Part shown: positions 1,425-54,958 of the stretch, in pieces
Layout: each line of letters begins with the position of its first letter
Position numbering within the stretch: the first letter of the stretch is position 1
Assembly: GCA_021734325.1 (NCBI GenBank)
Contig: JAIPJF010000008.1
Span: 4,136 to 68,135, forward strand
DNA: 64,000 nt
Reading direction: 5' to 3'
Source of the DNA: Fidelibacterota bacterium
GTDB lineage: Bacteria > Fidelibacterota > UBA8477 > JABMPR01
Translations under genes and position numbers: made by a program
The notes under the pieces: model-generated
What the model was told of the DNA's origin: nothing
The model's input: only the letters and a program-made list of their open reading frames with translations
Databases searched by the model: none

Positions 1425-1545
1425 TTTGGATTACCCCTTTCATGTAACCTGCAATAACCCAAATAATTTGGCAAGAAGTATTTCAGGAGATTATGTGTTA
1501 ATATATCTTGTAGGAATATCAATCTCAGGGGGTGGAAGGAAAACT

Positions 1546-4005
1546 ATGCAGGGAATATTGCAAAGATGCATCCTATTTCTCCTTTTCGGAGGCAGCTTGT
1601 CTGCTCAGCTTCCTTCGGGAATCATCAGTGGTACCATAACTGATCTTGACACTCAACAACCACTGCCCGGTGCAAATGTGATGCTAGATGGGACCTCCAT
1701 GGGCGCAGCGACCAATCTTGAGGGATATTATGAGATACGTAATGTGCCCTTGGGCTCCTACACGATCCGCATCAATATGATCGGATACAAATCCGTGGCC
1801 CGGGCCAATGTTCATGCCCTGGCTAATCGACCCGGTAGTGTCAACATATCCTTGGAGCCAACGGTTTTGACCGGTTCCGATATTGTTGTTACAGCCGGTT
1901 ATTTTGAGCAGACCAAAGATGCTGCAACCAGTGTTCGCAGTGTTGACTTTGAAGAGATCCGGTCTGATCCCGTTGGCTCGCATGACATTTTGAGTATGAT
2001 GCAATCCCTGCCATCAGTGGTCTCCGGCGCCGACCAGACCAATGAGATTATCGTCCGTGGCGGTGCACCAGGAGAAAACCTGTTTGTCATGGACCATCTG
2101 GATATTCCCTACCCCGTCCATTACCCGGAACAGGGTGCCGGGGGTGGACCGGTTACCATGGTCAATACGGACTTTATCGAACGTATCGATTTCTTCGCTG
2201 GTTCATTTCCTGCTCGCTATGGAGACAAACTGTCATCAGTAATGGATGTCAGCGTGCGTGAAGGCAACCACAGCAGTCACGAATCCAAGCTCAGTTTTGA
2301 TATGGCTGGATTTGGAGCCAGCCTGGAGGGACCACTGTCCATGAACAGTTCCTATCTATTCTCCATCAAACGTTCCTTTCTGGATTTCATTATCCAGCAG
2401 AGCGGTCTGATGGCCGTTCCAACCTACTGGACGTTTCAGGGTAAGATCGCCTATGATCTCAGTCCAAAGGAAAAACTCAGTCTCAATTATCTGGGTGGGA
2501 TCGATGGGATTGATATTGTGGGAGAAGATAGTCCCCAAAATCGTGGAGCCGACAATGTTGCCTATCGCTCACAGCAACATACTCTGGGCCTGACCTACAG
2601 GAATCTTTTTTCCAAGCAGGGATACCTGCTGGCTTCTATTGCTCAAAATTTTGTCAATATCAATATTGATGCCTACCATGTCACTGATGAAGGTGAACAT
2701 GATACGTTCTATGAAGGGATCACCGTTGAGCAGGAGACCATTGCCAAAGCAGACCTTGTCTACAAGCTGCGATCCAATCTGGAAATATCGGCAGGTGCAA
2801 AAGTGAAAATTGCTCCCAATACCTGGGAGATCAAATCTTACAGCGACTATTTGATACTATATGGCTACGCTGTCGATTCACTCTCCCCTGCACTGCCTGT
2901 CTCCGAGGCTGTTTTTTATGACCAATTCTTTGGTGATACAACTACGGTAGTCTTGCCATTTGACACATTGGATTCCATTGTGGGAAAAGATACCCTTTAC
3001 CATGAGATCTTTGGCAATTTTGGCATCCATGGCCAGGTCAAATACCACCCCACTGCCCGCCTGGAACTCATCCTGGGTGGACGTTTCGAATATCATAATT
3101 ATCTGGACAAGTACAATTTATCTCCCCGACTGAACATCAGTTACCAACTTTCACATAATGTGAAGCTTAACCTCGCTGGTGGGCGCTATTTCCAGGCACC
3201 TTTCTATGCCATGCTCATCTACGGTGGGGCCGATACAAAAGCATTGGACTATTACCATTCTGATCAGATTGCAGTAGGTCTCGAATATTTGCCCTTCGAT
3301 GATGTCCGCATGACCTTTGAGTATTATCAGAAGGAGTTCTCAGATATGCCCCAGCAGGAGATCCTGGTGGACAGGAACGGAGCTGACAGCCTGGGCCACT
3401 TTGTCAATATCGGAGCAGGTCGCTCAGAGGGCTTTGAGTTATTTCTGCAGAAGAAATTCTCACGTAACTGGTATGGAACATTCAGCTACAGCCATTCTGT
3501 CTCGGAAGGGGTCGATCCCCGTAAATCTGAGACTGCCTATTATCCCTGGGATTATGACTATCGGAATGTCATCAGTCTGATCGGAGGATACAAGATCCGC
3601 TACATGGACTACGATTGGTATCAGCATTATAAAAAGACAACCCTGGCATCAGTCACCTCCTGGTTGCCGCTGGCACCAGCTGATGAATTTGAGATCAGTT
3701 TTCGTTTGCGCTATTCAGGAGGGAAGCCATATACGCCCAAGACCTATGACCACAATGTCCGTCAATGGTACACCCTGGCCTCAGATGACTGGAACACTGA
3801 GCGAATGGATGATTACCTGCGTTTTGATCTTATGTTCCTCCAGCGTTTTTATTTTGAGAAAATGAATTTGGTGACCTTCTGGGATTTCATGAATCTCTTT
3901 AATAGAGATAACCCCTGGGAGTACATTTACAAGGAAGATGGTACAAAGGATATAGCCCTGCAATTCAAGACCTTTCCCATCGGCGGGGTCACATTGGAGT
4001 TTTGA
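1546..4005 (+). CDS. TonB-dependent receptor with N-terminal carboxypeptidase-regulatory-like domain
   Basis: The ATG at 1546 gives the signal peptide MQGILQRCILFLLFGGSLSAQ. A CarboxypepD_reg-like segment (GTITDLDTQQPLPGANVML...GYYEIRNVPLGSYTIRINMIGYKS) and a plug-like segment (IIVRGGAPGENLFVMDHLDI) are present, and the C-terminus ends in F. The track start at 1426 is a TTG extension without a signal peptide. Confidence 0.75.
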   Translation: MQGILQRCILFLLFGGSLSAQLPSGIISGTITDLDTQQPLPGANVMLDGTSMGAATNLEGYYEIRNVPLGSYTIRINMIGYKSVARANVHALANRPGSVNISLEPTVLTGSDIVVTAGYFEQTKDAATSVRSVDFEEIRSDPVGSHDILSMMQSLPSVVSGADQTNEIIVRGGAPGENLFVMDHLDIPYPVHYPEQGAGGGPVTMVNTDFIERIDFFAGSFPARYGDKLSSVMDVSVREGNHSSHESKLSFDMAGFGASLEGPLSMNSSYLFSIKRSFLDFIIQQSGLMAVPTYWTFQGKIAYDLSPKEKLSLNYLGGIDGIDIVGEDSPQNRGADNVAYRSQQHTLGLTYRNLFSKQGYLLASIAQNFVNINIDAYHVTDEGEHDTFYEGITVEQETIAKADLVYKLRSNLEISAGAKVKIAPNTWEIKSYSDYLILYGYAVDSLSPALPVSEAVFYDQFFGDTTTVVLPFDTLDSIVGKDTLYHEIFGNFGIHGQVKYHPTARLELILGGRFEYHNYLDKYNLSPRLNISYQLSHNVKLNLAGGRYFQAPFYAMLIYGGADTKALDYYHSDQIAVGLEYLPFDDVRMTFEYYQKEFSDMPQQEILVDRNGADSLGHFVNIGAGRSEGFELFLQKKFSRNWYGTFSYSHSVSEGVDPRKSETAYYPWDYDYRNVISLIGGYKIRYMDYDWYQHYKKTTLASVTSWLPLAPADEFEISFRLRYSGGKPYTPKTYDHNVRQWYTLASDDWNTERMDDYLRFDLMFLQRFYFEKMNLVTFWDFMNLFNRDNPWEYIYKEDGTKDIALQFKTFPIGGVTLEF

Positions 4006-11130: not shown

Positions 11131-11201
11131 AAAATGCGCCTCCATGCTGATCCCACATCAGGTGGGAAAGCTTATTAAGGTTTAAATTGTTATTCACGAT
11201 T

Positions 11202-12035: not shown

Positions 12036-12184
12036 AAGCGTGTCTCACTTCTTAGTTACGCCTAATATATACTTCTCCAAGGGTCTGCATAGTATTTTTT
12101 GGAAGCCCGAAAAAATATTTCCATAACACCAAAAACAAACCCTTTTCCTTTCATCATGGAATCGTCTGCAATACATTGCCAGCC

Positions 12185-14455: not shown

Positions 14456-14510
14456 TTGGAGCAAAACATTTCTCTTGACAGGAATATAAATTTCGCTACA
14501 TTGGAAACGT

Positions 14511-17440: not shown

Positions 17441-17450
17441 ACTATAAAAA

Positions 17451-18230
17451 ATGAGGCAACACAACATGAAACATCCTATTCGACAATTAACCGTTTTCAC
17501 TCTGCTCCTGGTTCCTTTCCTGCTCACGGCCCAGACTGGATATGAAATCGCCAAGGCCATGGATGAAACGCTCTCGCCAAAGGACATGAAGGCAGAAATG
17601 ACGATGGTTCTGACCAACAAGCAGGGAAAGACCAGAGAATCGACGATCCGTTCAATTTCTGCCAACGATAACCGAGAACAAATCATCTGGTTCCTATCGC
17701 CGGCAGATGACAAGGGCGTCGCATTTTTGAAGATCGAGCACCAGGATCAGGATGACGAAATGCGCTTATGGTTACCTGCATTCAATAAGGTCAGACGCAT
17801 CTCATCCAAAAAGAAGGCTGATTCATTCATGGGCTCAGATCTCAGCTATGAGGACATGACTTCCAGGGAACTGGATGAATACACATATGAACTCAAGGGA
17901 GAGCAAGAGATTGACGGGATTCCCTGTTATATCCTTGAGAGTACGCCTAAGGAAGGGATTACAAGAACTTATAAAAGATTTGTGACCTATGTCAGCAAGG
18001 CCGATCTGGTAGCCATAATTGATGAAGCCTATGACATGCGGGATGAGTTATTAAAACGCAGGGTCATGAAATATGAAAAGCAGAAGAGCTATAATCTGCC
18101 AGTTGAGATATATGTTGAGAATGTTCAGAAGAACACGAATACACGGCTCACCTTCAGCAAGCAGGAAGTCGATACGGGGGTTGAACCTGATCTATTCCAG
18201 GAGAAAAACCTGAAACGTATTCCTCAATAG
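17451..18230 (+). CDS. LolA-like outer-membrane lipoprotein-sorting family protein
   Basis: It has a signal peptide (LTVFTLLLVPFLLTAQ). The size, and segments such as MRLWLPAFNKVRRISS and SFMGSDLSYEDM, resemble LolA_like partners of COG1033 exporters. Confidence 0.55.
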   Translation: MRQHNMKHPIRQLTVFTLLLVPFLLTAQTGYEIAKAMDETLSPKDMKAEMTMVLTNKQGKTRESTIRSISANDNREQIIWFLSPADDKGVAFLKIEHQDQDDEMRLWLPAFNKVRRISSKKKADSFMGSDLSYEDMTSRELDEYTYELKGEQEIDGIPCYILESTPKEGITRTYKRFVTYVSKADLVAIIDEAYDMRDELLKRRVMKYEKQKSYNLPVEIYVENVQKNTNTRLTFSKQEVDTGVEPDLFQEKNLKRIPQ

Positions 18231-18232
18231 AT

Positions 18233-19609
18233 ATGAAGGATTTGCTAATGAGAATTCACCCTTCAAGATTGGCGCTATTAGTCCTGCTTCCCTTCACGCT
18301 TCTGGGGCAACTCAACATCTCAGGTGAAGTTTCACCAAGCGCAATGATTCGTATCAGTGATGGCAGCATCATTGATCTGCCTTTTCGCCCATTCAGCCTG
18401 TCTGTTGATTATGCTCTCGGTGACTTTGAACTTAAAACGACCACTGCGATTGAAACACGGTGGAAGGATCCAGAGTTTTCATCAGATATGATTCAGTTCC
18501 GAGAAGCCTATCTTGAGTGGTACCCCTCTTTTGGTGAAGTAAAACTCGGCAAAATGATTCATGCCTGGGGAGCTGCTGATGCCAATAACCCCACGGATAA
18601 TCTTTCACCTTATGATTACTACTATATGTTTCTTACAGGGACTGATAGAAAGATCGGGACCCTGAGTATGTCAGGCAAAGCATATTTAGGTGACGCTCAA
18701 TTGGAGCTCATAGCCATCCCGGAGTTTGAATCAAATCGCTTCCCCCTGAATGAACCAGACTTTCCCATTAACATTCCCATTCCGGATGGAGCTCAATATT
18801 TTTATCCAGAGAATGAGTTTGAATTTGGTGCACGTTTGCGGTACGCCATGGGTCTGGGCGACATATCGGCAAGCTATTTCAAGGGAAATGATCGCTCATT
18901 CTCCCCTGCTGGTGTGGAAATTGATCTCTCTCCCACCTTTCAGGGCTTACCCCCAAGTTTTATGAGCCACCTGACCTATCGTTCAACGGATGTCATGGGA
19001 CTTGATGCAGTTCTCTTCCCCGGTGATTGGACCCTGAGAGGTGAATTTGCCTATTTCAGGACGAAGACACCTGACATCGACCATGGAATGTCAAAATTTA
19101 CCTATGATGCCCAATACTTGCAGTCAGTTCTCCAGGTGGAATATTCATTTGCAAATTCAGTTCAGCTCATGGGGCAATTCATCAGCAACAAATATATCGA
19201 CACTGAGTCTGAATTTGTGAAGGACAATAACTTCCTGGCACTGGAGAACATGCTGCAGAACACCAGTGACCCATCTCTGGATCCGCTTCGCACCATGCTG
19301 AGTAGCTTTACCATACCCGAATTTTCAGCCGGAATGGGAACGCCCTTTGCCATGATAGCCGACAAGGTCGTCATGTTGTCCTCAATGGCGACCATCCTTG
19401 ACAACGATCTTGAGATCAGGGGCATGCTCATGGTGAACCTTGATGAAACCGGATACATGCTGAATGCAGGCGGTGAGTACACCATCAAGGAAGGCTTGTC
19501 CTTTGATGCTACTCTGGGCTATTTTATCGGTGGTGATGAGGATGGGAACCGATTTAAGGAATTAGAGGATTTCTCTAATGTGACTTTGACAATGAAATAC
19601 AGCTTTTAA
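18233..19609 (+). CDS. Putative outer-membrane beta-barrel protein (DUF1302-like)
   Basis: It has a signal peptide. The segment REAYLEWYPSFGEVKLGKMIHAWGAADANNPTDNL resembles DUF1302 or porin-like barrels. The alternating pattern and the C-terminal YSF are typical of OMPs. Confidence 0.5.
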   Translation: MKDLLMRIHPSRLALLVLLPFTLLGQLNISGEVSPSAMIRISDGSIIDLPFRPFSLSVDYALGDFELKTTTAIETRWKDPEFSSDMIQFREAYLEWYPSFGEVKLGKMIHAWGAADANNPTDNLSPYDYYYMFLTGTDRKIGTLSMSGKAYLGDAQLELIAIPEFESNRFPLNEPDFPINIPIPDGAQYFYPENEFEFGARLRYAMGLGDISASYFKGNDRSFSPAGVEIDLSPTFQGLPPSFMSHLTYRSTDVMGLDAVLFPGDWTLRGEFAYFRTKTPDIDHGMSKFTYDAQYLQSVLQVEYSFANSVQLMGQFISNKYIDTESEFVKDNNFLALENMLQNTSDPSLDPLRTMLSSFTIPEFSAGMGTPFAMIADKVVMLSSMATILDNDLEIRGMLMVNLDETGYMLNAGGEYTIKEGLSFDATLGYFIGGDEDGNRFKELEDFSNVTLTMKYSF

Positions 19610-19690: not shown

Positions 19691-20605
19691 ATGACACGAC
19701 TTTTTAGAAAATATCAACGTATCGCAAAAACCATATCACCCATGGAGATTTCAACCAACTTTTCTCAGCAGGATCTTAGCTGGGATGATCTTTTCAATCC
19801 AGGTGCACCGACCAACACCACGGATCTTTTCCTGGGTAAATATTCTGAGGATGGAATAAAATTTATCCTCTCACGTTTTGGGCTGGATAAGCAGGCACGA
19901 CACCTCGGGTTTCGCCACTTGACTGTTAAGATCGACACGAAAGACCCTTTCCGGCATATACTAACCGTTTACAATGGTCTTTCACCGGACCGTTCTCAGG
20001 TCATCATGGAATTTGTAGCTCGCTATCAGCATATCATTCCCAATGATTTAGAAGCAGAATTTCTCTATACTCAGAAATTAAGAGTTTTAACCGTAGAATG
20101 GTTGTTGCTCCAGAATCCAAAAGCTTCATTTAGCAATCAGAAACCCCGGCTTCCAGGTCAGGAGTACCCCGGTCTCGGTCTGGGTGATGAATTACTCGCC
20201 TTATTTACGATCATGGGACGGCATTTGAAGGTGGATGGCATCATTAATGTGCCAGAGCATCTTCATACCGGTTTGCTATTTGGCAAGCGATTCATCTTCC
20301 TAAGCCCCTGTGTACAAGCTCAGGTGGCGCAAATCTCTCATGATCTTTGGAAAAAATATCGACTTTCGGTTATCGCCTGGGCCAGCTCCCTGGGTGCCAT
20401 TGTTCACATTGAATCAGGAAAACCCATGGAGTGGGAACCTCGGAAACAAATTATTCCGATAAACAGACAACTCCGTCAATATTTCAAATCAGATGCATAT
20501 TTGGGAATCGCCCAAGCCCTAAGCAGTTCAGACGTATATTGCATTGATGAGGATAAGTTAAGGCGAGCACTCGCTGCTATGGAAAATCCGCCGTTTATTT
20601 TATAG
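19691..20605 (+). CDS. Hypothetical protein (no recognisable domain)
   Basis: It is a long ORF with coding-like composition. The ATG at 19691 lies downstream of the terminator hairpin. No motif was recognised. Confidence 0.45.
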   Translation: MTRLFRKYQRIAKTISPMEISTNFSQQDLSWDDLFNPGAPTNTTDLFLGKYSEDGIKFILSRFGLDKQARHLGFRHLTVKIDTKDPFRHILTVYNGLSPDRSQVIMEFVARYQHIIPNDLEAEFLYTQKLRVLTVEWLLLQNPKASFSNQKPRLPGQEYPGLGLGDELLALFTIMGRHLKVDGIINVPEHLHTGLLFGKRFIFLSPCVQAQVAQISHDLWKKYRLSVIAWASSLGAIVHIESGKPMEWEPRKQIIPINRQLRQYFKSDAYLGIAQALSSSDVYCIDEDKLRRALAAMENPPFIL

Positions 20606-21463
20606 CCGGAACCAGTTTTCCTTCTCAGCTCTGATCATCAGCAATTCTGCCTGCTTTTTTTCGTGCTGATTCTCGGGATAACAGGGAGAATCCTTATCAT
20701 TCGACGCAGTAATAACCTGGGTTAATATCCGATAGAAAAGATCCTTATCCCCGACCAGAGAGCAATAATATCTGGCCATGAAAGTATAATTTCCCAAATA
20801 GTCAGGAGATTGATCAATTGCAGTCTCAAATGCGATTCTCATGGACAAGGTATCAGTTCCCAGTTCAGGATCGCGGGCAAGCAGTGCCCCCTTGTATCTA
20901 TAATAGGCACCATAATAATAGTTCGAATCTAGATCGTGAATATGTTCCAATGTGGTCCAGACCAGGTCACGTTGTCCAAGACGCACAAGAGGACCTTTTG
21001 ACTCCAGCCATCGACCATAATTGGCGAGACCCCAGTAAAGATTATCCACATATTCTATACCCATTCCCTCGATGGCCATCTTCTCATTACCTGTTGAAAA
21101 TAGAAGATTATAATACTGAGGATTTCGCATACGACTGGCTTGAGCCACCTCGTAGCCTTTGATAAAAAGACTGTCTTTGCTGGCAGAATCATTCGTCAAG
21201 AATTGAGCACAGTAATAATACGCTCGGGAAACTTTTGTGGCCAGAATTACCGATTCCGAATCCTTCTCCGCAAGTTCCAAATAGGAATAGAGTGCTTTAA
21301 AGGCGAGTGCAGAATCAGATCTCAGAGACCAGAATTTATCTGCATCTGCTTCCGTGATATCGTAGGATGCCAGTGGATCAGTAAAGACTTGAGAATTATT
21401 CGTCGCACACGAGATAAAAATCAAGCTGAGGCTCATCATGAAAATGAATCTAATTTTTATCAC
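20600..21463 (-). CDS. Lipoprotein of unknown function (helical-repeat-like)
   Basis: It has the lipobox MSLSLIFISCATN. Y- and A-rich helical content suggests TPR-like repeats. No catalytic motif was recognised. Confidence 0.5.
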   Translation of the reverse strand: MIKIRFIFMMSLSLIFISCATNNSQVFTDPLASYDITEADADKFWSLRSDSALAFKALYSYLELAEKDSESVILATKVSRAYYYCAQFLTNDSASKDSLFIKGYEVAQASRMRNPQYYNLLFSTGNEKMAIEGMGIEYVDNLYWGLANYGRWLESKGPLVRLGQRDLVWTTLEHIHDLDSNYYYGAYYRYKGALLARDPELGTDTLSMRIAFETAIDQSPDYLGNYTFMARYYCSLVGDKDLFYRILTQVITASNDKDSPCYPENQHEKKQAELLMIRAEKENWFRL

Positions 21464-21590
21464 GTAGTCCCCATTTATACGATTTCCTCACCATACTAAA
21501 GTTATCGAATATATACCTTTGCCAGTCCCGATAACAAACATTATTAAATCTTGAACATTGTCCAAGGACTCACATCACACCTTCTTATGC

Positions 21591-24527
21591 TTAATTTGAA
21601 ATACTAAAGGTCCAAAGATTTTTGCCAGGGAGAGACTTCCATGTCTCATTTTCCAGGCGAGCAACTGGAAATTGCAGGTGAAGGGTTAGAGGCCTCAACA
21701 GGGTTGTGATCCAGCTGGTCCGTTTCCAGTGGGGTCTGTACTTGACACCAAATCCCAGGTCGCTGATCCAAGTCCAATGAGCGCCATCTGCTGAGGTTTG
21801 CCCCAGATCAAAAAACGTAATGAAAGTAAATCCCATTGCCCCGACGGGATTGGGGCTAATTGAAAGATCCAGATTATTGCTCCATAAATAATTAATCTGT
21901 GCATCCAGGGAATCGCTGTACCCTCTCATCCGGCCGCCACCCATCAAATGGTAGCGGGAGCCGATCAGATCGATCCTGTCTGTATGATGCAGACTGCTTG
22001 CCAAACGATCCAGGTACAGGGTTCTCGAATCAGCTGAGGCTACGCGGGCCATCACCAATCCAGGTGTCATTGAGCTATTGCTCAAAAAGTTACTCCGATT
22101 GCTTACTTGTATAGAGCCCAGCGATTTAGTCCAGTAACTCATAAGGGATTCCTGACTAAAATCCTGAATGAAATTTCCTAATCCTCTTGGCGAAAATTTG
22201 ACTGACGCACTGAATCCATAAGTTCCTCCAAAGAGATTGTTTTGGAGCTCATAGCGCAGACCAAGTCGGGTAAAGCTACTCTGCTCTGTTGCAGGGATAA
22301 GCGCATGATCAGAATTTGTATAATCTGCTTCCAGAGTTAGGTAATGAACTGGATTTCGCCAGAATCGCTTTGCCCAGCTCATTTCATAGGCTATGACTGC
22401 CGTTGACATGGATCTCCAGCTTCCCAGCGTGCCGGATAAAATCGCTTGAAACGGCAAACCGATCTGTTCCTTTTTAAACGAGAGTGAGACATCTGGATTC
22501 CCGGAAAGGAAATTGTGATCAACTTCAAGGGCCACATAATCTCCTGGATACCGATATACCCGATCAAGGCGGACACCCAGCCCAAGACCTGCATCGTCAT
22601 TATAGCCAAAATGAGGTTTCCACAGAATGAGGTTTTTATCACCAGGGAAATTTTCCCAATCTTTAAAATTGTACCGCCAGGAATTATCCAACCAAGAGCG
22701 ATTATTTCTTCTGTCAACATCCAGAAAGACATTATCAGCATCAAGTGCAGCATCCGTAGGTCGAAAGTCTGATTCAATCTGAATGGTTCCATCTGTTCGA
22801 AACCTGAACTCCTCCAGAGGCGCGGACTGAGTTTCTCCATTTTCACCATAAACGGTCGCTACGATAGGTACAAACAGACCTCCATTATTCTTTACATCAA
22901 TAACGGATCGATACTTTCCATTTGATAAATGTTCAAAATCAAACGCACACAGTTCATAGTCCACGTACTTTGTGGTGTGGAGCCATTGGTCAAAAAACCA
23001 GTCAAGCTCTTCCCCACTTCCATCTTCCATGGATTTTACAAAGCGCTCCTCATTGACATGTTTCAAGGCCCAGCGTTGATAATACAGCTGCATACCGGCC
23101 AGGAATCGGTCCTCACCAAGATAGGATTTTAATGAGTAGATCATCATGGCAGCACGATCATACACATTTGACCTGTAGGACCCAGTATTCTGAAAATCAT
23201 AAGCGTGTGTAGCCACGGGTTCATTGAGCGGTGATTTTATATACTTGATGATGGGCTTATAATCTTTTTCCTGATACATCACCCGGGGAAGATGCTCAGA
23301 TTCAAATTCGGTGATATAATTCCTTGTCAAGGCATAGCCGTTTTCAGGATAGAATATTTCCTGATACCAAAGGGTCTGGAATGATGTAAGACCCTCATCC
23401 AACCATGCGTCATCCAGTTCATCGTTCCCGAATAGACCATAGAACCAGTTATGACCCGCTTCATGAACGATCAATCCTTCGCTATGCGTTTCATCCATGA
23501 TCAGCATGGGATATTCCATACCGCCACCAAGGAGGGCATGGGTGATGGTGAACTGGGGATAGGGATAGGGTCCAAATTTTTCTGATAACCAGCGTATTGC
23601 CGAGATACCATGTTTTACTACAGCTTTGGTCCAATTCTCCCCAACTCCAGTATTGAACAACACGTGAATATCAACTCCCGACCAGTTGCCATGTTCATAT
23701 ACAAAGTCTCGGGAACACATCCAGGCAAAGTCATGTACATTTTCAGCAAGAAAGCTCACCGTGCGTCTTGCCAGACTATCGGTTTGAAGCAGCTGCTCCT
23801 TACGGGCACTGCTGAATTCCTCCAGCCACGCTTCCCATTGCTGTGCAGTATCAACTTCCACATCTGACCAACCTGGATCACCATCAACGACAACGCCCGT
23901 CGCGCACACGATTTGCTCATAGGGCACATCAAGATTTACTCTAAAGGTGCCAAACTCCCCATAAAACTCACCCCAATCACCGAAGGGATCATCGTGCCAG
24001 CCATTTTCATCATATACAACAAATTTTGGATACCATTGGGCAAAGTCAAATTGACTACCCTGATATCCTGAGCGATCGAGATAAGCATGGATAATTAAAG
24101 TCCAGTTCATGTGGAAATGGAGGGTGTCACCTGGGGAAAGAGACTGCTTTAATTGGATTTCGAGGATGGTATCATCTCTGATTGAGAAATCCAATTGGGA
24201 CGAATCAGATGTAATATCCTCAACATTAATTCCCGACCACTTCTGCTCATCTCCGATCGAAGTGCTGTACTGTGACCATACTTCAGCGGCAATGGTACCT
24301 GCATTGTATGCATTGTGATAGAGATGCATGAGGATCTGATTTAATGTATCAGGGGAATGATTCACATAGAGAAGATTTGAAGTGGTCGTAAGGGTCTTTG
24401 TGTCTGCATCCAGAACTGCATTCATGTCATATTCAACATATTGTTGCCAATACTCGGCAAGGCTGATACTTGGCAGCAGACAGATTAATAAAATAAGGTG
24501 TCTGAGATGTTGGCCCGAAAGCTTCAT
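21591..24527 (-). CDS. M1-family zinc metallopeptidase fused to a C-terminal Omp85-like beta-barrel
   Basis: GGGMEYP, HEAGHNWFYG (codons at 23451..23465) and WLDEGLTSF form the M1 gluzincin signature. The C-terminal ~400 aa is beta-rich with GGGRMRGYS (21915..21941), FFDLGQ and LGFGVKY, which resemble Omp85 barrel motifs. The ATG at 24527 gives the signal peptide MKLSGQHLRHLILLICLLPSISLA. Confidence 0.7.
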   Translation of the reverse strand: MKLSGQHLRHLILLICLLPSISLAEYWQQYVEYDMNAVLDADTKTLTTTSNLLYVNHSPDTLNQILMHLYHNAYNAGTIAAEVWSQYSTSIGDEQKWSGINVEDITSDSSQLDFSIRDDTILEIQLKQSLSPGDTLHFHMNWTLIIHAYLDRSGYQGSQFDFAQWYPKFVVYDENGWHDDPFGDWGEFYGEFGTFRVNLDVPYEQIVCATGVVVDGDPGWSDVEVDTAQQWEAWLEEFSSARKEQLLQTDSLARRTVSFLAENVHDFAWMCSRDFVYEHGNWSGVDIHVLFNTGVGENWTKAVVKHGISAIRWLSEKFGPYPYPQFTITHALLGGGMEYPMLIMDETHSEGLIVHEAGHNWFYGLFGNDELDDAWLDEGLTSFQTLWYQEIFYPENGYALTRNYITEFESEHLPRVMYQEKDYKPIIKYIKSPLNEPVATHAYDFQNTGSYRSNVYDRAAMMIYSLKSYLGEDRFLAGMQLYYQRWALKHVNEERFVKSMEDGSGEELDWFFDQWLHTTKYVDYELCAFDFEHLSNGKYRSVIDVKNNGGLFVPIVATVYGENGETQSAPLEEFRFRTDGTIQIESDFRPTDAALDADNVFLDVDRRNNRSWLDNSWRYNFKDWENFPGDKNLILWKPHFGYNDDAGLGLGVRLDRVYRYPGDYVALEVDHNFLSGNPDVSLSFKKEQIGLPFQAILSGTLGSWRSMSTAVIAYEMSWAKRFWRNPVHYLTLEADYTNSDHALIPATEQSSFTRLGLRYELQNNLFGGTYGFSASVKFSPRGLGNFIQDFSQESLMSYWTKSLGSIQVSNRSNFLSNSSMTPGLVMARVASADSRTLYLDRLASSLHHTDRIDLIGSRYHLMGGGRMRGYSDSLDAQINYLWSNNLDLSISPNPVGAMGFTFITFFDLGQTSADGAHWTWISDLGFGVKYRPHWKRTSWITTLLRPLTLHLQFPVARLENETWKSLPGKNLWTFSISN

Positions 24528-24583
24528 ATGTTTTTTCCCCACGATTGACCAGCAGAGGTGGATAGACTTCCACCTCTCACGAT

Positions 24584-26353
24584 TCATTCCATAAGTTTGA
24601 TATGCAACTCTCTGAGCTGATCCTCATCAACAAATGAAGGTGCATCATCCATAAGGGAAGCAGCAGAGGTTGTTTTGGGGAAAGCGATAACGTCACGAAT
24701 ATTGTCTGTCCCCGCGAGCAGCATGATCAAGCGATCGAATCCGAAGGCAATGCCACCATGGGGTGGGGCACCATATTTGAACGCCCTCAACAAGAATCCG
24801 AAACGTGCATTGGCCTCCTCTTCGTCCATACCAATTAATTCGAACATGCGACTTTGCATCTGACGAGTATGAATTCTTATTGATCCGCCAGCAACTTCAT
24901 AGCCATTGATTACCAGATCGTAGGCTCGCGCTCTAACCTTTCCTGGATCTGATGTCATGAGCTCAATATCCTCTGGATTAGGAGAGGTGAAAGGATGATG
25001 CATGGCGATGTACCGCTGACTATCCTCATCCCAGTCCAATAGGGGGAAGTTAGTTACAAAAAGCGGCTTGATGTCTGTCTCCGGGATCAGGTTCTCCCGC
25101 TTGGCAAGTTCTATCCGCAAAGCACCCAAAGCCTGGAGTGTCCTGGCCTCGTCATCAGAGACAAAAAACATAATATCATTATCTTTGAGTGCCAGATTCC
25201 CGATTATCTCGGTTTGGAGCTCAGCTGAAAAGAATTTGCTGATCCCGGCCGCGAAAGCTCCCTGCTCAACCTTTATAAAGGCAAGACCCTTCAATCCATA
25301 GTAGGTTTTCAACCATTCTGTAAGTTCATCCAATATCTTTCTGGAATAATGGTCTGCTGCATTTTTAAGGATCAAGGCCTTCACTCTTCCGCCACCTGCC
25401 AGATTGTCCTTGAAAACACTGAACTCTGTCTTCTCCGCATAGGTGGCAAACTCGATCAAAGGCAGCTCAAACCGGATATCTGGCTTGTCACTCCCATAGA
25501 TTTCCATGGCATCGTGATAATCCATCACAGGAAATGTTTCTGGCAGCTGGTAATCCAGGACTTCCTTGAATATCCCTTGCGTTACGCGTGTCGCCAGACC
25601 CATGATGTCGTCCTGATCAATAAAGGACATCTCAATATCTATTTGTGTGAATTCCGGTTGACGATCAGCCCGCAGATCCTCATCACGAAAACATTTTACA
25701 ATCTGAAAATACTTGTCAAATCCAGCAATCATGAGCAGCTGTTTGTAAGTTTGAGGAGACTGGGGTAAGGCGTAAAATTTTCCTTGATGAATGCGACTTG
25801 GAACCAGATAGTCCCGGGCACCTTCAGGTGTTGATTTCATCAGCACAGGTGTTTCGAACTCCATGAATCCCTCGGCGTTCAACAAACGGCGGGCGCTTTG
25901 ATAGGTTCTGGATCTAATTTTCATGAAATTCTGCAACTCTGACGTCCGTAATTCCAGATAGCGATATTCAAGCCGAAGTTCTTCGTTTCCACTCTCTCGA
26001 TCAGAGACCAGAAATGGAAGGGGTTCTGCTTCATTAAGCACTTCCAATTCAGAGACAATGACTTCGACCTCACCAGTTGGTAAATTAGCGTTGACGTTTC
26101 CACCAGGACGAGCAGTGACCATTCCTTTAATGGCAATGACATCTTCCATACCGAGTCGCTTGGCCCGGTCAGCCATTTTTGCATCAAGATCTGGGTTGAA
26201 TGTGATCTGAGTCTTTCCATAGCGATCGCGGAGATCCAGGAATATCACCCCACCGTGATCTCTATTTTTCGCCACCCAACCATTCAGGATGACTTCCTCA
26301 CCGATATTCTTTGTCGTTAATTGACCACAAGTTACTGTTCGTTTTAATCGCAT
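24584..26353 (-). CDS. aspS: Aspartate--tRNA ligase
   Basis: It has an OB-fold N-terminus, the class II motifs FRDEDLRADRQPEFTQID and GGIAFGFDRL, and the expected length. Confidence 0.93.
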   Translation of the reverse strand: MRLKRTVTCGQLTTKNIGEEVILNGWVAKNRDHGGVIFLDLRDRYGKTQITFNPDLDAKMADRAKRLGMEDVIAIKGMVTARPGGNVNANLPTGEVEVIVSELEVLNEAEPLPFLVSDRESGNEELRLEYRYLELRTSELQNFMKIRSRTYQSARRLLNAEGFMEFETPVLMKSTPEGARDYLVPSRIHQGKFYALPQSPQTYKQLLMIAGFDKYFQIVKCFRDEDLRADRQPEFTQIDIEMSFIDQDDIMGLATRVTQGIFKEVLDYQLPETFPVMDYHDAMEIYGSDKPDIRFELPLIEFATYAEKTEFSVFKDNLAGGGRVKALILKNAADHYSRKILDELTEWLKTYYGLKGLAFIKVEQGAFAAGISKFFSAELQTEIIGNLALKDNDIMFFVSDDEARTLQALGALRIELAKRENLIPETDIKPLFVTNFPLLDWDEDSQRYIAMHHPFTSPNPEDIELMTSDPGKVRARAYDLVINGYEVAGGSIRIHTRQMQSRMFELIGMDEEEANARFGFLLRAFKYGAPPHGGIAFGFDRLIMLLAGTDNIRDVIAFPKTTSAASLMDDAPSFVDEDQLRELHIKLME

Positions 26354-27004: not shown

Positions 27005-29689
27005 TCATTGGCCAAACCAATAAGATACCTTCAGTGCGAATACATCATCTGCCTGTTCGCTCAGGAGCGCTGATAAATCCTCAGCAAGATCGAATTTCCC
27101 AGGATGATCATAATTGGCACCATTATGGGTCCATACAAGGAACATGGACGAACCGGGCATAAATTCCCAGCGTAAGACCAGGGTTCCAACCAGAGACTTT
27201 TGATTGAAATCGGGATCGTAGATAATAAAAGCGTCTTCATCCGTCCCCCCTGTGGGATCAACCGAATAATAGTAGTCATTTTTTTCGATTGTTGATCCGT
27301 CTTCTCCATACATCAGAAAGTCATTTGACTCAGGTGCAGCATATTCCTTAAAGCCAGAATATTTCCCGACGCCAATAAAGGGCTGGAAATATCCCTGCAT
27401 GGTGAATCGAGGTGTGATTGGGTACTCAATACGAATTTCAGCAGCTGCTTCCGTATAATCCAGTTGGGAAACCACATAGCGTTTGCCATACATGGCCGTG
27501 TTGTTCAGATCAACCACAGATCTGATATATTGGTTCATATCCGTTGAGCTATAGAAACTCGGTCCAACTGATATATTGATCCGATTACCAATTTTAGCAC
27601 TCACTTCGAATGATGAACCTAGACTTCGCCCACCATCAGTTTCCGCTCCCGTATTGATGGATGCATACATGGAAACATCTTTTCGATAATCAGAGTTAAG
27701 GCTGACACCGAAAAAGGGGCCAGCTACTTCAATTACTCTTGGGCCACCGCGGAGTGCGGCTTTGTTAAGTACCTCTCCCGAATATCCACCATCAAAGCTA
27801 ATACTCCAAAAATTGATGAATTTGATATATGCCATTCCATATAAAACATCTGCTGTCTTAACCATGCCAAAATCGTGACTTGTTGCATAGGCAACATCGG
27901 CTCGGGCAGAATGTATGTATTTGCCGCGCTCCAACCAGCGGTATCCAACACAAACATGCTTATTGATCACATCGGTAGTAAAGGTCAAGCCCATATCGTT
28001 GGTCTCAAAACCAGGTGATATCCAGCCTAATGCAGCATTAAATGAAACATTTCCTTTTTCCTTGTTCAGGTTGAGGCGACCTGCATACCCGCTTAAAGAA
28101 TGGGCCGAAGTATCGAGATTAACATGCTCTGCATCCGGTCTCTGGTAATAATGACTGGAGTTCTGCTGGAGCGAAAATATTCTGGATTCAGAGCCCCTCA
28201 CGTTGGAAAATCCACCCCAACCTCCAAGTACCCAATCTCTATTTTTTCCGAAGAATGCCCACCCGTCTACACCAATGCCAACAGCCTCATCAGAGAGCAG
28301 ATTTTCAATATTGTGATCCTCATCCATGGGACCAAATAATTCCACTCCATTTATGAAGCGTTTGGTATAGGTCCCAATAAAGCCTAAACCATAGCGACCA
28401 TCCTTCATCTCTTTCATTGAGCGTAGCAGATTGTAGGAGGTGTAAGGTTCAACTTGTTCATCGACAATTTTACCATCCTGATAATAGTGGGCATACTCGC
28501 GATTCGTGAGGGCAGCCAACCCGCCAACTGACCAATCATCACCCACTTTTCCACTGATTTTTGCAGCACCCAGAATCCGCGTATTAGACGATTTATCCAA
28601 TGAATCTGGGTGTGCCTGATAAATTCGTCCCTGGGGAGGACGTCCGATCCTGCGGCTATAGAAAAACTGAGGTGTGCTAAAATTGATACTCATATTACTT
28701 GTAGGACCGCTATTGCCAAAATTAAAGATACTTCTCCCTTCCAAAAAGAAGGGCCGTTTTTCAGAATAATAGGTTTCATGATCGGACAAGTTGATGGAGG
28801 AGGGATCTGCTTCCACCTGACCAAAATCCGGGTTGATTGTAGCGTCAACTGTCAAGTTGGCTCCAATTCCAAATTTTGTATCCAACCCCAGATCGAAATT
28901 CGTGTCATGTCCTTCGATAAAGACATTATCAGCCAGTGTTGGAAGTTGACTGGCACCGGAAGTGAAATAGGGTAGATATTCTCTTCTTTTGGGTGGATGT
29001 ATGCTCTGAATATTTGTAAGCTCAGCAGCGCGACTCATCACACCACTCTCGTTGAGGGCAAAATAAGCAAAATAATCCCATTCACCTGCTCTCTGGATAT
29101 AGCGTGTCGGCAGGATACCCCAGGTGTATTCCTCCTTGTCACTAAACCGCAATTGTGAGTAAGGAATTCGCATCTCTGCCGTCCACCCCTTTTCATCGAT
29201 CCTGGTTTTACCTTCCCATATTCCGTCCCATGAATCATCTGTCCATGAATCATTGAAATACACTTCGTCGCGCATGGAACCTGCTGGATTGATCTGGAAA
29301 GAAAATCCAGATCTCTTATCGTGGTAGGAATCTATGATGACTTCAAAGATATCGGCATTTAAAAAGGCATCTCGTCGGCCAATCCGGCCCACAATCGAAT
29401 CGGGGTCAGTATCCCACAGCCGGGCGCCTACATATATTGCATCATTATCGTATCCGATCCAGAGATCCGTTTTTTGGGAGGCTTTAGCCCCATTAAATGG
29501 CTCATACTGGATAAAGTCTGAAACACTCTGTGTTTGATAGAGTGCTTCATCAAGAATGCCATCCACCCTCAGTGGTTTAGAAATTCGGGTGGCCCTTATT
29601 TCCCTTTGTTTGTAGTTATTAGGATCAAAGGGCTCATCATAGGCCAGGAGGATTGATGCGATCGATAAAAGAACGAGTAAATTTTTCAT
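27005..29689 (-). CDS. Secreted DUF5916-like protein with N-terminal carbohydrate-binding family 9-like domain
   Basis: The ATG at 29689 gives a signal peptide. The N-terminal segment DGILDEALYQTQSVSDFIQYEPFNGAKASQKTDLWIGYDNDAIYVGARLWD is typical of CBM9-like/DUF5916 proteins. The C-terminal region is large and beta-rich. Confidence 0.55.
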   Translation of the reverse strand: MKNLLVLLSIASILLAYDEPFDPNNYKQREIRATRISKPLRVDGILDEALYQTQSVSDFIQYEPFNGAKASQKTDLWIGYDNDAIYVGARLWDTDPDSIVGRIGRRDAFLNADIFEVIIDSYHDKRSGFSFQINPAGSMRDEVYFNDSWTDDSWDGIWEGKTRIDEKGWTAEMRIPYSQLRFSDKEEYTWGILPTRYIQRAGEWDYFAYFALNESGVMSRAAELTNIQSIHPPKRREYLPYFTSGASQLPTLADNVFIEGHDTNFDLGLDTKFGIGANLTVDATINPDFGQVEADPSSINLSDHETYYSEKRPFFLEGRSIFNFGNSGPTSNMSINFSTPQFFYSRRIGRPPQGRIYQAHPDSLDKSSNTRILGAAKISGKVGDDWSVGGLAALTNREYAHYYQDGKIVDEQVEPYTSYNLLRSMKEMKDGRYGLGFIGTYTKRFINGVELFGPMDEDHNIENLLSDEAVGIGVDGWAFFGKNRDWVLGGWGGFSNVRGSESRIFSLQQNSSHYYQRPDAEHVNLDTSAHSLSGYAGRLNLNKEKGNVSFNAALGWISPGFETNDMGLTFTTDVINKHVCVGYRWLERGKYIHSARADVAYATSHDFGMVKTADVLYGMAYIKFINFWSISFDGGYSGEVLNKAALRGGPRVIEVAGPFFGVSLNSDYRKDVSMYASINTGAETDGGRSLGSSFEVSAKIGNRINISVGPSFYSSTDMNQYIRSVVDLNNTAMYGKRYVVSQLDYTEAAAEIRIEYPITPRFTMQGYFQPFIGVGKYSGFKEYAAPESNDFLMYGEDGSTIEKNDYYYSVDPTGGTDEDAFIIYDPDFNQKSLVGTLVLRWEFMPGSSMFLVWTHNGANYDHPGKFDLAEDLSALLSEQADDVFALKVSYWFGQ

Positions 29690-30060
29690 AAAGTCCCCAA
29701 TCTTTGTGAGTTGCACTATTGGCTGAGAAAAACAAAACAGATCAATTACTTATAAGACAATCATAAATGTTGAATCACATTGATGTCCGATTGATCCGGG
29801 ATAAATAGGTGTCATTCCCAAATTCATACCGCTCATACTTTCAATGCCTGTGCCAAAATATATAAATTCTATAAATACAACAAGATATCTGATTCTACGA
29901 AATGATTTATGACGCAATTACCGCATCATTATGATATTAACTATATAAAAAAGATATAACTGGATACCCATACGCAATGCTTAAAAGTTGATCGAATCAT
30001 ATTTTTTTAGCACTAAACTTAGGGTATGAATCCTCTATTCTTCCATCCATATTTGTCTCC

Positions 30061-32580
30061 GTGAAAATGCTAAAACATATAGGCGGCTGGATGCTCCTCC
30101 TCACAATGGTCTGTGTTGGATACGCTGAACAAAATATTCATGGATTTATCCGCGATGACCTGACCGGTGAACCGCTTCCCTACGCGAATATCATGCTCCC
30201 TGAAATAAATCGTGGAGCAGTCTCCAATATTGATGGATATTTTGTGGTTAGCAATCTGCCAGTCGGCAGCTATAGCTTCCTTGTGTCCATTATCGGCTAT
30301 GCGAAGTATTCTCAGGAAATCGAACTGGCGCAAGACATTGATTATCGGATGGATATTCGTCTGGTACAGGAGGTCATCGAGGGCCAATCCATCGAAGTCA
30401 GTGCCGAGCGTGAAAAATTCAAGGAACTGGTGTCTACAAGTACAGTGACCCTGGACCGTCGCACGATTGAAGCAGCCCCTTCCTTCGTGGAAGCGGATGT
30501 TTTCCGAGCACTTCAGCTCCTGCCCGGTGTTCAATCCTTGAACGATTTTTCCTCAGCTTTGTATGTTCGGGGCTCCACTCCCGATCAAAACCTGATCATG
30601 CTGGATGGCATCACCGTTTACAATCCCATGCACCTGGGAGGAATTTTTTCCACTTTTAATACAGATGCAATAAAGGAAGCAGAATTCCACGCAGGTGGAT
30701 TCCCTGCCCAGTATGGAGGCCGTTTAGGTTCCATACTCAATATCGTTAATCGTGAGGGCAACACAGAAGAAATTACAGGCAATGCGAACATTTCACTTAT
30801 ATCCAGCAAGATCCTCGTGGAAGGTCCGCTTCCTACTCGGAAATCAGATGTCATAAATGGTTCCTGGATGATCGCAGCCCGTCGAACCTATTTTGACATG
30901 ATTGTCAATAAGGGCTGGAAATATCTGATAAAACCTACTTTGGATGAACAGGATCGTGAGAGTGCACCCGATCGGATTGTTCCTTATTATTTCTATGATT
31001 TTCAAGGAAAGCTTAACGTTGACATCGGAAATGATCACCGATTGACTTGGAGTTCATTTTATGGTGATGATGTGCTTGATTGGGGCTACACCGACACATA
31101 TTCTTCAGATGATTGGATAGATGAGGGTTATGTGAATCCTGATAATTCGTATTATTCAGGGAAGAGCAAAGCAGATTTTGATTGGCGCTGGGGAAATTTC
31201 ACAAACAGTCTCAGTTGGCGCTGGATAATAAATCCAAAATTAATAGCCAAAACATTTATCGCCAACAGCCGTTATCGATTTGCAGTAAACATTGATAATG
31301 ATGATGAGAATTATTTTCAAAGTGATTTTGATACCTCCCGCTCAAGCTCAATTTTTAAGTTTGATCTCTTTGATAAAATTAATGATGAGAGTGTTGAATC
31401 CATGCTCACCTGGCTGCCTTCTGAATCTCATACAGTCCTTGGAGGCTTTCAATACAAACAGGTTTGCTTTGATCTCGGGATGCTTTTATCTGCCCAGGAT
31501 TCACGAGACGGAATAACTGAGACCTTTCAGGATACGATCATGTGGATGCAATCCAGACCTTCGGAGGTGGCATACTATATTCAGGATAAATGGGAGATGT
31601 CCCCCCTGTTGTCTCTACAATCCGGTTTGCGTATTGCTCGATATTCCCTCCATGACCTGAATTATTTTGAGCCTCGACTCGGCGTAAAATATTTCCTTTC
31701 CGAGCAACTTTCCGTGAAAGCTTCAGCTGGTCGTTATCATCAATTCCTTACTGTTGCCAATCCCCCTGATGAGAATCTGAGATTTCTGGATATTTGGTTT
31801 GGAGTCCCCGGGGATAGAAAAGCGCCACGATCCGATCATTACATTCTCGGTGCAGAATACTTGACAGACGCTGATGTCCTTCTTCGTGCTGAAACCTATC
31901 ATAAAACATTTGACTATCTATTGACCCTTAAACCATCTGACCTGATTGCCATTGATGAAGATGGGAATTTGAGAATAGATCCATTCAATGAATTCTGGGA
32001 TACTGATGCCTATGCAGATGGATTAGAGATCCTGGTCAAAAAACTCTCCGGGAAGGTTCGCGGATGGGTTGGTTATACCTACGCAGTTACTCAGAGGAAA
32101 TACGCGGGTCAGGATTGGTATTATCCAAAATATGATCGCACCCATACTGTGAATGTAGTAGCCGATTGGGCATTAAATAGTGCTCTGCATTTCAGCTCAG
32201 CCATCACCTACAGTAGCGGAAATCCCTATACAGCGGTGAAAGGTAGATATGAGACCTGGCAGTCATTTAATTGGACAGTTGATGATATATGGGGGGTGAA
32301 TCAAGGCTTTTTATATGGGGATCGACATGCTGAACGATATCCCGGATACTTCCGTTGGGATATAAGCTTAAAAAAACGTAAACCTTTCCATGCGGGAACA
32401 CTGGAATGGTATTTTCAGATTCTCAATGTGACCAATCATCTCAATATTTTCAGCTACATTTATAAAATTAACAGTGAATATGATTTTATATCGAACACCA
32501 GTGTAAATCAGGAAGTTCAGCGACTGGGCATACCCATGTTTCCATTTTTCCCAAGCTTTGGAGTCAAGATTGAATTCTAA
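30061..32580 (+). CDS. TonB-dependent receptor with carboxypeptidase-regulatory-like domain
   Basis: It has a signal peptide, a CarboxypepD_reg-like segment (GFIRDDLTGEPLPYANIML...GYFVVSNLPVGSYSFLVSIIGY), a plug (ALYVRGSTPDQNLIMLDGITVYNP) and a terminal F. Confidence 0.8.
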   Translation: MKMLKHIGGWMLLLTMVCVGYAEQNIHGFIRDDLTGEPLPYANIMLPEINRGAVSNIDGYFVVSNLPVGSYSFLVSIIGYAKYSQEIELAQDIDYRMDIRLVQEVIEGQSIEVSAEREKFKELVSTSTVTLDRRTIEAAPSFVEADVFRALQLLPGVQSLNDFSSALYVRGSTPDQNLIMLDGITVYNPMHLGGIFSTFNTDAIKEAEFHAGGFPAQYGGRLGSILNIVNREGNTEEITGNANISLISSKILVEGPLPTRKSDVINGSWMIAARRTYFDMIVNKGWKYLIKPTLDEQDRESAPDRIVPYYFYDFQGKLNVDIGNDHRLTWSSFYGDDVLDWGYTDTYSSDDWIDEGYVNPDNSYYSGKSKADFDWRWGNFTNSLSWRWIINPKLIAKTFIANSRYRFAVNIDNDDENYFQSDFDTSRSSSIFKFDLFDKINDESVESMLTWLPSESHTVLGGFQYKQVCFDLGMLLSAQDSRDGITETFQDTIMWMQSRPSEVAYYIQDKWEMSPLLSLQSGLRIARYSLHDLNYFEPRLGVKYFLSEQLSVKASAGRYHQFLTVANPPDENLRFLDIWFGVPGDRKAPRSDHYILGAEYLTDADVLLRAETYHKTFDYLLTLKPSDLIAIDEDGNLRIDPFNEFWDTDAYADGLEILVKKLSGKVRGWVGYTYAVTQRKYAGQDWYYPKYDRTHTVNVVADWALNSALHFSSAITYSSGNPYTAVKGRYETWQSFNWTVDDIWGVNQGFLYGDRHAERYPGYFRWDISLKKRKPFHAGTLEWYFQILNVTNHLNIFSYIYKINSEYDFISNTSVNQEVQRLGIPMFPFFPSFGVKIEF

Positions 32581-40867: not shown

Positions 40868-43133
<2,266 letters not shown>

Positions 43134-43145
43134 AATAGGCCTGAT

Positions 43146-44681: not shown

Positions 44682-44695
44682 GTTCCTGTTTTCCT

Positions 44696-54948: not shown

Positions 54949-54958
54949 AGAGGATATT

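Follow-up and report, generated by a model that had tools for sequence, protein, structure and literature searches.

A putative M1 aminopeptidase fused to an Omp85-type outer-membrane barrel in a Fidelibacterota bacterium and its relatives

In this work, we present a computational analysis of a gene of a Fidelibacterota bacterium, located at 21591..24527 on the minus strand of a 64,000-nucleotide stretch of DNA (contig JAIPJF010000008.1, positions 4,136 to 68,135; GenBank assembly GCA_021734325.1), which as a whole is called the window below. The gene is predicted to encode an M1 zinc aminopeptidase fused to a beta-barrel of the Omp85 superfamily, and of this architecture, taken alone, we are highly confident. 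Our interpretation of the whole protein, held with moderate confidence, is that of an outer-membrane-anchored, periplasm-facing M1 aminopeptidase which would trim oligopeptides. Omp85 proteins are known as protein insertion or translocation machines. To our knowledge, enzyme-Omp85 fusions are few and poorly understood; PlpD is the only one we know to have been studied, and its topology has just been revised.

The longest open reading frame (ORF) at the locus is 21591..24587 on the minus strand and encodes 998 aa, while the start at 24527 is an internal Met of this frame (MKLSGQ...) and gives a protein of 978 aa. The 978-aa version is 100% identical to the NCBI entry P0001, 'M1 family metallopeptidase [Candidatus Marinimicrobia bacterium]'. 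Close homologs have 975-979 aa and span 99-100% of it, and because their lengths match this version, 24527 is the better start. In the 998-aa frame the ATG at 24584-24587 overlaps the TGA stop of the upstream aspS gene (ATGA), and translation from it would put 20 extra residues ahead of the signal peptide. In the N-terminus, MKLSGQHLRHLILLICLLPSISLA followed by EYWQQ, we read a Sec signal peptide, and it has no lipobox. The AlphaFold2 (AF2) model has a helix of low confidence at aa 3-23 in this region, and the mature N-terminus YWQQ, which is conserved among homologs, begins at aa 26.

As judged from its sequence, the N-terminal part is a complete M1 peptidase (domains I-III) with an intact active site and without domain IV, and it is probably active. 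Pfam family PF01433 matches aa 345-515 of the query (E=5.5e-18; 65.8 bits versus a cut-off of 27.7), and sequence matches in PDB are to aminopeptidases, including aminopeptidase N. A full-length AF2 model, for which 52 homologs were aligned, reached a mean pLDDT of 91.1 and a pTM of 0.86. The best 50 PDB matches of this model in Foldseek are all M1 aminopeptidases (IRAP, ERAP1/2, PepN, tricorn factor F3), with E~1e-24 over about 620-650 aligned columns which span domains I and II and the beta-sandwich domain III.

The residues expected at the active site are kept: E338, H355, the catalytic E356, H359, E378 and Y456 are invariant in all 52 homologs. In the PDB alanine aminopeptidase 7v9n the counterpart of Y456 is the Tyr of the segment 'itYaKGa', which we take to be the catalytic Tyr of M1 peptidases. 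In the exopeptidase motif each of G335, G336, M337, E338, Y339 and P340 is conserved in 52/52 homologs, so that GGMEY keeps the N-terminus-binding Glu (E338) and has an invariant Tyr in place of the Asn of the canonical GxMEN. Since the Glu which binds the free amine is retained, aminopeptidase activity appears plausible. GGMEN is the motif of LTA4H-type M1 enzymes, and GGME of the fusion comes close to it.

Beyond aa 517 the AF2 model contains only beta structure, first domain III and then the barrel; the domain III-like region has six strands at aa 524-595 and no helices by DSSP, and it is not a POTRA domain. Most M1 enzymes, though not all, have a helical domain IV as a cap over the cleft. 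With PepN, ERAP/IRAP and LTA4H the fusion shares domains I-III, the HExxH-E zinc site and the catalytic Tyr, while it differs from typical M1 enzymes in the membrane barrel that occupies the position of domain IV, in its predicted export via a signal peptide and in the invariant Tyr at the Asn of GxMEN. In having no helical domain IV it resembles 6a8z, the two-domain M1 enzyme of Deinococcus (PDB 6a8z/6iff), the 474-aa chain length of which we take to mean that domain IV is absent. The fusion is a genuine M1 member without domain IV.

The C-terminal part is, on the strength of the models, a 16-stranded barrel of the Omp85 superfamily without POTRA domain. Sixteen strands are present in both AF2 runs, of the full-length protein (pLDDT 91.1) and of the barrel only (pLDDT 86.9); the barrel was modelled alone for the fold search, since M1 aminopeptidases saturated the Foldseek results of the full-length model. 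With the barrel-only model the best 50 PDB matches all belong to the Omp85 superfamily (TamA, BamA, Sam50), and no porin or other barrel family is found among them. They include TamA 8us3 (the best match, E=1.7e-7), TamA 4c00, BamA of Flavobacterium, Bacteroides and E. coli, and Sam50.

According to Maier et al., the signatures of Omp85 proteins are (V/I)RG(Y/F) at the tip of loop 6 (L6) and (F/G)xDxG on strand 13; an Arg-Asp salt bridge between the two motifs is the 'lid lock', a Gly of strand 14 adjoins the Phe of FxDxG, and the BamA/TamA insertases typically have FxDxG, and the TpsB translocases, the pores of which are wider, GxDxG (PMC4490367). In the fusion, loop 6 is predicted to comprise 62 residues between strands 11 (806-817) and 12 (880-890), a placement equal to that in BamA, TamA and FhaC, and it carries GGGRMRGY, with R868, G/A869 and Y/F/W870 each conserved in 52/52 homologs. 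The strand-13 motif (F905 in 52/52, D907 in 51/52, G909 in 46/52) is FxDxG, of the insertase type, and not GxDxG, while the invariant G925 corresponds to the conserved strand-14 Gly of BamA/TamA. A profile of 22 C-terminal regions of the family matches PDB 9ccg_A ('POTRA domain-containing protein') with E=9e-4, and the alignment covers GGxxLRGY, FxDxG and DAGxG near the C-terminus of 9ccg_A; a literature search on PDB entry 9CCG returned nothing relevant.

The fusion of an M1 gluzincin domain, N-terminally, to an Omp85-type barrel had been proposed earlier by a sequence-only reading of the same DNA, and the PF01433 match, the two structure models with their 16 strands, the Foldseek results, the 9ccg_A profile and the motif conservation all bear it out. 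The motifs on which it relied (GGGMEYP, HEAGHNWFYG, WLDEGLTSF, GGGRMRGYS, FFDLGQ and LGFGVKY) lie where it had placed them. Its assignment of GGGRMRGYS to loop 6 agrees with the position between strands 11 and 12 and with the Arg found in 52/52 homologs, and FFDLGQ and LGFGVKY, which it had read as Omp85 C-terminal strands, turn out to be the strand-13 FxDxG partner and the strand with the strand-14 Gly. A search for the POTRA family PF07244, which had been recommended in addition, gave no match in the query at E<=10.

Only 36 residues stand between the all-beta domain III and strand 1 of the barrel. The linker within this interval has a pLDDT of about 90 in the full-length model versus 46-76 in the barrel-only model; that it gains confidence only together with the M1 module suggests packing on the enzyme rather than threading of the pore. 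The motif of the linker reads LDVDRRN at aa 602-608 (22704-22724 in the window), with D603 conserved in 52/52 and N609 in 42/52 homologs. The Asn-Asn pair of the linker, replaced by G-Q/H in about a fifth of homologs, stands ahead of the barrel and recalls what we take to be the intra-barrel autocleavage site of the serine protease autotransporters of Enterobacteriaceae (SPATE). As for the loops of the barrel, the predicted lengths are 3 (L1), 5 (L2), 2 (L3), 12 (L4), 10 (L5), 62 (L6), 6 (L7) and 2 (L8), and turns T4 and T5 have 2 residues each; apart from L6 there is no BamA-like dome and most extracellular loops are very short.

The breadth of the family across phyla and clusters shows that the fusion is old, common and inherited as a unit, conserved across phyla of the FCB group. 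The full-length protein search, in which 8000 candidates were scored, found at least 4844 proteins at E<=1e-3. The best 120 matches, which were examined, are mostly proteins of ~975-1020 aa from Marinimicrobia, Fidelibacterota and 'FCB group' bins, and their database names are 'M1 family metallopeptidase', 'hypothetical protein' or, rarely, 'BamA/TamA family outer membrane protein'. With the full-length alignment, the species genomes of GTDB gave at least 600 loci, and the best 80 of them come from Marinimicrobia, KSB1, Latescibacterota, Krumholzibacteriota and Gemmatimonadota. About 70 complete ORFs in these best 80 loci encode 972-1268 aa, all with HExxH, and in most of them the last residue is aromatic or hydrophobic. 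Searched with the barrel-only profile, 1.84 billion cluster representatives (50% identity) yielded 1034 clusters at E<=1e-3, of which 530 reach E<=1e-10, and the best 150 matches are nearly all full-length fusions of ~1000 aa or 5'-truncated fragments.

Short matches of the barrel profile (about 360-570 aa) were considered as separate architectures and rejected, being mostly 5'-truncated metagenomic fragments which retain the M1 end. Among single variants, P0251 (416 aa, with a signal peptide) is likely a standalone barrel and has a Cys as possible lipoprotein site, and P0205 (511 aa) keeps the YWQQ N-terminus and the barrel with nearly the entire M1 module gone. Two loci have longer versions with about 150-290 extra aa, the 1268-aa ORF of locus L059 and the 1159-aa ORF of L063.

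In the window, the fusion gene lies between aspS (24584..26353) and the gene of a TAtT-like TPR protein (20600..21463), all on the same strand, and aspS is upstream also in the closest relatives, of about 56-60% identity (loci L001-L004, L009 and L010). The upstream aspS and the downstream TAtT-like gene were considered as operon partners in the clade of the window and set aside, as they look like plain synteny with no obvious functional link. A gene of an M14 zinc carboxypeptidase is directly downstream of the fusion in 9/9 loci of relatives (L001-L007, L009, L010), including L005-L007 with ~40% identity; examples are L002:8917-11190 and L007:8971-11274. The gap before it is about 4-34 nt in the two loci examined, and the encoded protein of about 760 aa has MAM-like domains and, in one copy, a dockerin domain. 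The corresponding place in the window (21464-21590) is only a 127-nt gap with no M14 gene and no tblastn trace of one, and the lineage of the window seems to have lost or moved this gene.

A different neighbourhood is found in the wider Marinimicrobia clade, of about 35-42% identity. Upstream on the same strand are genes of a patatin-like lipase (22 loci), DsbD (26) and a thioredoxin/AhpC-like protein (27), and the order on one strand in L011-L047 is patatin-like lipase, DsbD, thioredoxin/AhpC-like protein and M1-Omp85 fusion. A cyclophilin gene occurs upstream in 10 loci and shares the strand of the fusion in 9/10, and a DegP/HtrA protease gene is downstream in 9 loci. These wider-clade neighbours are of periplasmic or envelope functions. 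A direct link with DsbD is unlikely, because no conserved cysteines occur in the consensus of the fusion protein. The free-standing patatin gene beside an Omp85-type gene recalls the fused architecture of PlpD.

In the interpretation which we prefer, the barrel would be inserted into the outer membrane by BAM and would serve mainly as an anchor, while the M1 module would remain joined to strand 1 at its periplasmic end and so lie at the inner side of the outer membrane. There it would trim N-terminal residues from oligopeptides entering by outer-membrane transporters or freed by periplasmic proteases, and the trimmed products would pass on to inner-membrane uptake. A membrane-anchored periplasmic enzyme is more likely than a surface-displayed one because, by homology, strand 1 of Omp85 barrels begins on the periplasmic side, because the FxDxG lid lock belongs to the closed type seen in insertases, because the linker apparently packs on the enzyme and does not lie in the pore, and because genes of periplasmic proteins are the conserved neighbours in the wider clade. 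The loop pattern, with long L4, L5 and L6 and short T4 and T5, fits such a register of strand 1. PlpD, the only studied enzyme-Omp85 fusion, points in the same direction, since Hanson et al. (2024) found that its patatin domain remains in the periplasm (PMC11116518).

Several results weigh against this interpretation or parts of it. The strand-1 argument alone is compatible with export as well, since classical autotransporter barrels also start on the periplasmic side; the M14 neighbour looks extracellular and would also fit extracellular peptide scavenging; and the periplasmic neighbourhood is known from related lineages, not from the window. As to the barrel, its Foldseek TM-scores are moderate (0.45-0.53), the C-terminal ~400 aa of the query have no Pfam or NCBIfam match even at E<=10, and in the family PF01103 matches only 2/22 C-termini and ShlB 1. 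The PF01103 match foreseen by the sequence-only reading is accordingly absent from the query, and it stands for the homolog P0085 (35% identical; 'BamA/TamA family outer membrane protein' in NCBI), the equivalent region of which passes the PF01103 gathering score (27.5 versus 24 bits).

The query without Pfam match in this region would suit a soluble beta-rich domain in which RGY occurs by coincidence, and so would the hydrophobicity alternation of its strands, which is the same as in the soluble strands of the M1 module; as it does not discriminate, the alternation was not used as evidence. We find such a domain hardly credible. AF2 gives a closed set of 16 strands with high confidence, the best 50 Foldseek matches are exclusively Omp85 barrels, both Omp85 signature motifs and the strand-14 Gly are conserved (R868, F905 and G925 in 52/52), and most homologs end in an aromatic or hydrophobic residue. 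Because the motif conservation, the 9ccg_A profile, the PF01103 match of P0085, AF2 and Foldseek agree, the C-terminal RGY is more than chance.

In surface display or self-export, the Omp85-type barrel would move the M1 module across the outer membrane, giving a surface or released enzyme, and extracellular peptides would be cut and then taken up by TonB-dependent receptors. The order of passenger and then barrel resembles type V systems, the M14 carboxypeptidase directly downstream in 9/9 close relatives (dockerin in one) suggests shared extracellular peptide degradation, and TonB-dependent receptors, on which the sequence-only reading had remarked, are indeed encoded in the window at 1426..4005 and 30061..32580. 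An aminopeptidase of Pseudomonas aeruginosa, the type Va autotransporter AaaA, is also of interest here; reportedly its passenger is of family M28 and its barrel a classical autotransporter barrel of 12 strands with a helix filling the pore, unrelated to Omp85. With the fusion it shares an aminopeptidase N-terminal to an outer-membrane barrel, and as an autotransporter reported to act at the surface it is the functional precedent for a surface-tethered aminopeptidase (PMC3426542).

Against export of the M1 module speak the missing POTRA domain and the missing long linker helix that could fill the pore, as well as the conserved FxDxG lid lock of the BamA/TamA type, which implies a closed, narrow barrel. 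A globular zinc enzyme of ~570 aa would, moreover, need to cross the membrane unfolded, and in the wider clade it is periplasmic proteostasis genes that are conserved next to the fusion. The prototype itself, PlpD, is periplasmic, which overturns the premise of an exported PlpD passenger from which type Vd-like surface display had been suggested (PMC11116518). Surface exposure of the M1 module is thus disfavoured, and we consider it unlikely.

With regard to known systems, BamA and TamA are the best structural matches of the fusion barrel and have in common with it the 16-stranded barrel, a long loop 6 with (V/I)RG(Y/F), FxDxG on strand 13 and the strand-14 Gly. In contrast to them, the fusion has no POTRA, with the M1 peptidase in the place of POTRA, and its extracellular loops are much shorter; sequence similarity is marginal, and the barrel is likened to theirs by fold and motifs alone, not by insertase function. 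PlpD, which represents 'type Vd', and the fusion both have an enzyme domain N-terminal to an Omp85 barrel in one polypeptide, and they likely follow the same logic, that of an enzyme in the periplasm with an outer-membrane anchor (PMC11116518). PlpD, however, consists of a patatin lipase, a POTRA domain and a helical linker with its barrel, while the fusion has an M1 peptidase and no POTRA. Type Vd stands for a patatin-like passenger, one POTRA and an Omp85 barrel; as neither a patatin domain nor POTRA is present, the fusion is not a type Vd member, and the absence of POTRA makes it an atypical member of Omp85.

Heinz and Lithgow (2014) described ten Omp85/TpsB subfamilies, including patatin-, WD40- and 'Metallo' (PF00149)-Omp85 and 'noNterm', and none of the ten carries an M1 (PF01433) domain (PMC4104836). 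The 'noNterm', 'Metallo' and 'WD40' subfamilies are likewise Omp85 barrels without POTRA or with alternative N-terminal domains (PMC4104836), while PF00149 of the 'Metallo' class has a fold different from M1. Full-text literature searches for an Omp85 protein combined with M1 or an aminopeptidase gave nothing relevant, in line with the earlier remark that no characterised equivalent was known. The M1-Omp85 fusion appears to be an enzyme-Omp85 subfamily undescribed in the literature searched.

The exact sequence position of the barrel, which is that of domain IV in the order I-II-III-IV, allows for another possibility, in which the barrel replaces domain IV, caps the cleft from the periplasmic side and as a gated conduit hands peptides to the active site. 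A defined arrangement of the domains is implied by the pTM of 0.86, the extracellular loops are mostly very short with no BamA-like dome besides L6, and the fusion is conserved as a unit across phyla, all of which would suit a channel coupled to a peptidase. It is opposed by the fact that no known Omp85 barrel works as a solute or peptide channel and by the conserved lid lock, which suggests that L6 plugs the lumen; the idea is drawn from topology only, and we regard it as improbable. A slightly better chance, which is still small, goes to the broader proposal that the barrel either is a functional replacement of domain IV, docked over the cleft as a gated conduit through which peptides are admitted and trimmed, or exports its own enzyme.

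The neighbourhood of the wider clade could also be read as a sign of envelope quality control. Here the barrel would engage BAM or nascent outer-membrane proteins and the peptidase would degrade stalled or misfolded envelope proteins or fragments of these, by analogy to BepA and BAM. The neighbouring DsbD, thioredoxin-like, cyclophilin and DegP/HtrA genes in many loci and the BamA/TamA-type motifs of the barrel are in favour of it, and Heinz and Lithgow raised periplasmic quality control for the 'Metallo' Omp85 class (PMC4104836). M1 enzymes, however, are aminopeptidases acting on free N-termini, in keeping with the invariant GxME Glu of the fusion, and do not work as endoproteases on folded or stalled proteins; also, there is no POTRA domain for substrate binding, and the DsbD/DegP-type neighbourhood is absent from the window. 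To quality control we therefore assign a slim chance.

Under our preferred interpretation of a periplasmic enzyme on a membrane anchor, this large family (>1000 clusters at 50% identity), deeply conserved in Marinimicrobia (SAR406), KSB1, Latescibacterota, Krumholzibacteriota and Gemmatimonadota and outside the published catalogue of Omp85 subfamilies, would be a second, independent case in which an Omp85 scaffold has been put to new use for keeping an enzyme at the outer membrane. It suggests that abundant uncultured marine heterotrophs carry out a step of peptide processing with an enzyme anchored in the outer membrane, and on this family one could learn whether Omp85 barrels without POTRA only anchor or also serve in transport. 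If instead a conduit or self-export were true, the family would be neither insertase nor classical translocase but form a functional class new to Omp85 proteins, with a wide distribution in the FCB superphylum. Coordinates of all features are given in Table 1.

Table 1. Features of the M1-Omp85 fusion gene in the window, with examples of the conserved block of the wider clade
Feature	Coordinates	Strand	Basis
M1-Omp85 fusion coding sequence, 978 aa + stop	21591..24527	-	ORF list and homolog lengths
Predicted Sec-type signal peptide, aa 1-24	24456..24527	-	read from sequence; no lipobox
M1 domain I, N-terminal beta domain, about aa 25-216	23880..24455	-	AF2 secondary structure, Foldseek
M1 catalytic (thermolysin-like) domain II, about aa 217-517	22977..23879	-	PF01433, PDB sequence matches
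GGGMEYP, variant of GxMEN exopeptidase motif (E338)	23508..23528	-	sequence coordinates, 52-homolog alignment
HEAGHNWFYG, HExxH zinc-binding and catalytic motif (H355, E356, H359)	23436..23465	-	52/52 conserved
WLDEGLTSF, with third zinc ligand E378	23379..23405	-	D377, E378, G379 52/52 conserved
Y456, probable catalytic (transition-state-stabilising) Tyr	23160..23162	-	52/52 conserved
M1 domain III-like beta-sandwich, about aa 518-599	22731..22976	-	AF2 DSSP, Foldseek
Linker, aa 600-631, conserved LDxDRRNN motif	22635..22730	-	homolog alignment, AF2
Predicted 16-stranded Omp85-superfamily beta-barrel, aa 632-978	21594..22634	-	AF2, Foldseek, profile, homolog PF01103 matches
Loop 6, aa 818-879, short helices	21891..22076	-	AF2 DSSP
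GGGRMRGYS, loop-6 signature (V/I)RG(Y/F); here MRGY, aa 867-870	21915..21941	-	52-homolog alignment, 9ccg_A alignment
FFDLGQ, strand-13 signature FxDxG	21798..21815	-	within predicted strand 898-912
LGFGVKY on strand 14	21738..21758	-	G925 52/52, D923 48/52
Wider-clade block, examples	L011:2525-3487, L016:3307-5289, L047:5229-5930, L014:7725-9227		

A scan of the window with Rfam found no RNA families. Among its other genes, two CarboxypepD_reg-type TonB-dependent receptors are encoded, one at 30061-33601, where it is followed by a DUF4249 protein, and the second at 1426-4005, beside a sigma factor of the extracytoplasmic function (ECF) type. A 903-aa DUF5916 protein is encoded at 27005-29716. 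Three more gene groups comprise F-type ATP synthase genes (40868-47011), a molybdopterin oxidoreductase with an NrfD-type membrane subunit, polysulfide/tetrathionate-reductase-like (52163-55900), and the hydrogenase maturation factor HypF (60341-62614). At 9116-11145 two tandem paralogs of glyceraldehyde-3-phosphate dehydrogenase overlap by 4 nt, and the pair adjoins a TrmB-type sugar regulator, a GH57 alpha-amylase/4-alpha-glucanotransferase and a glycogen-phosphorylase-like gene. The plus-strand cluster at 12176-19609 consists of an MMPL-family transporter, a TetR regulator, a second MMPL transporter, a LolA-like/DUF1329-like protein and a 458-aa protein, which has no Pfam match and ends in ...TLTMKYSF, in the manner of an outer-membrane barrel; the cluster may serve to export lipids or lipoproteins and have a barrel of its own for this.

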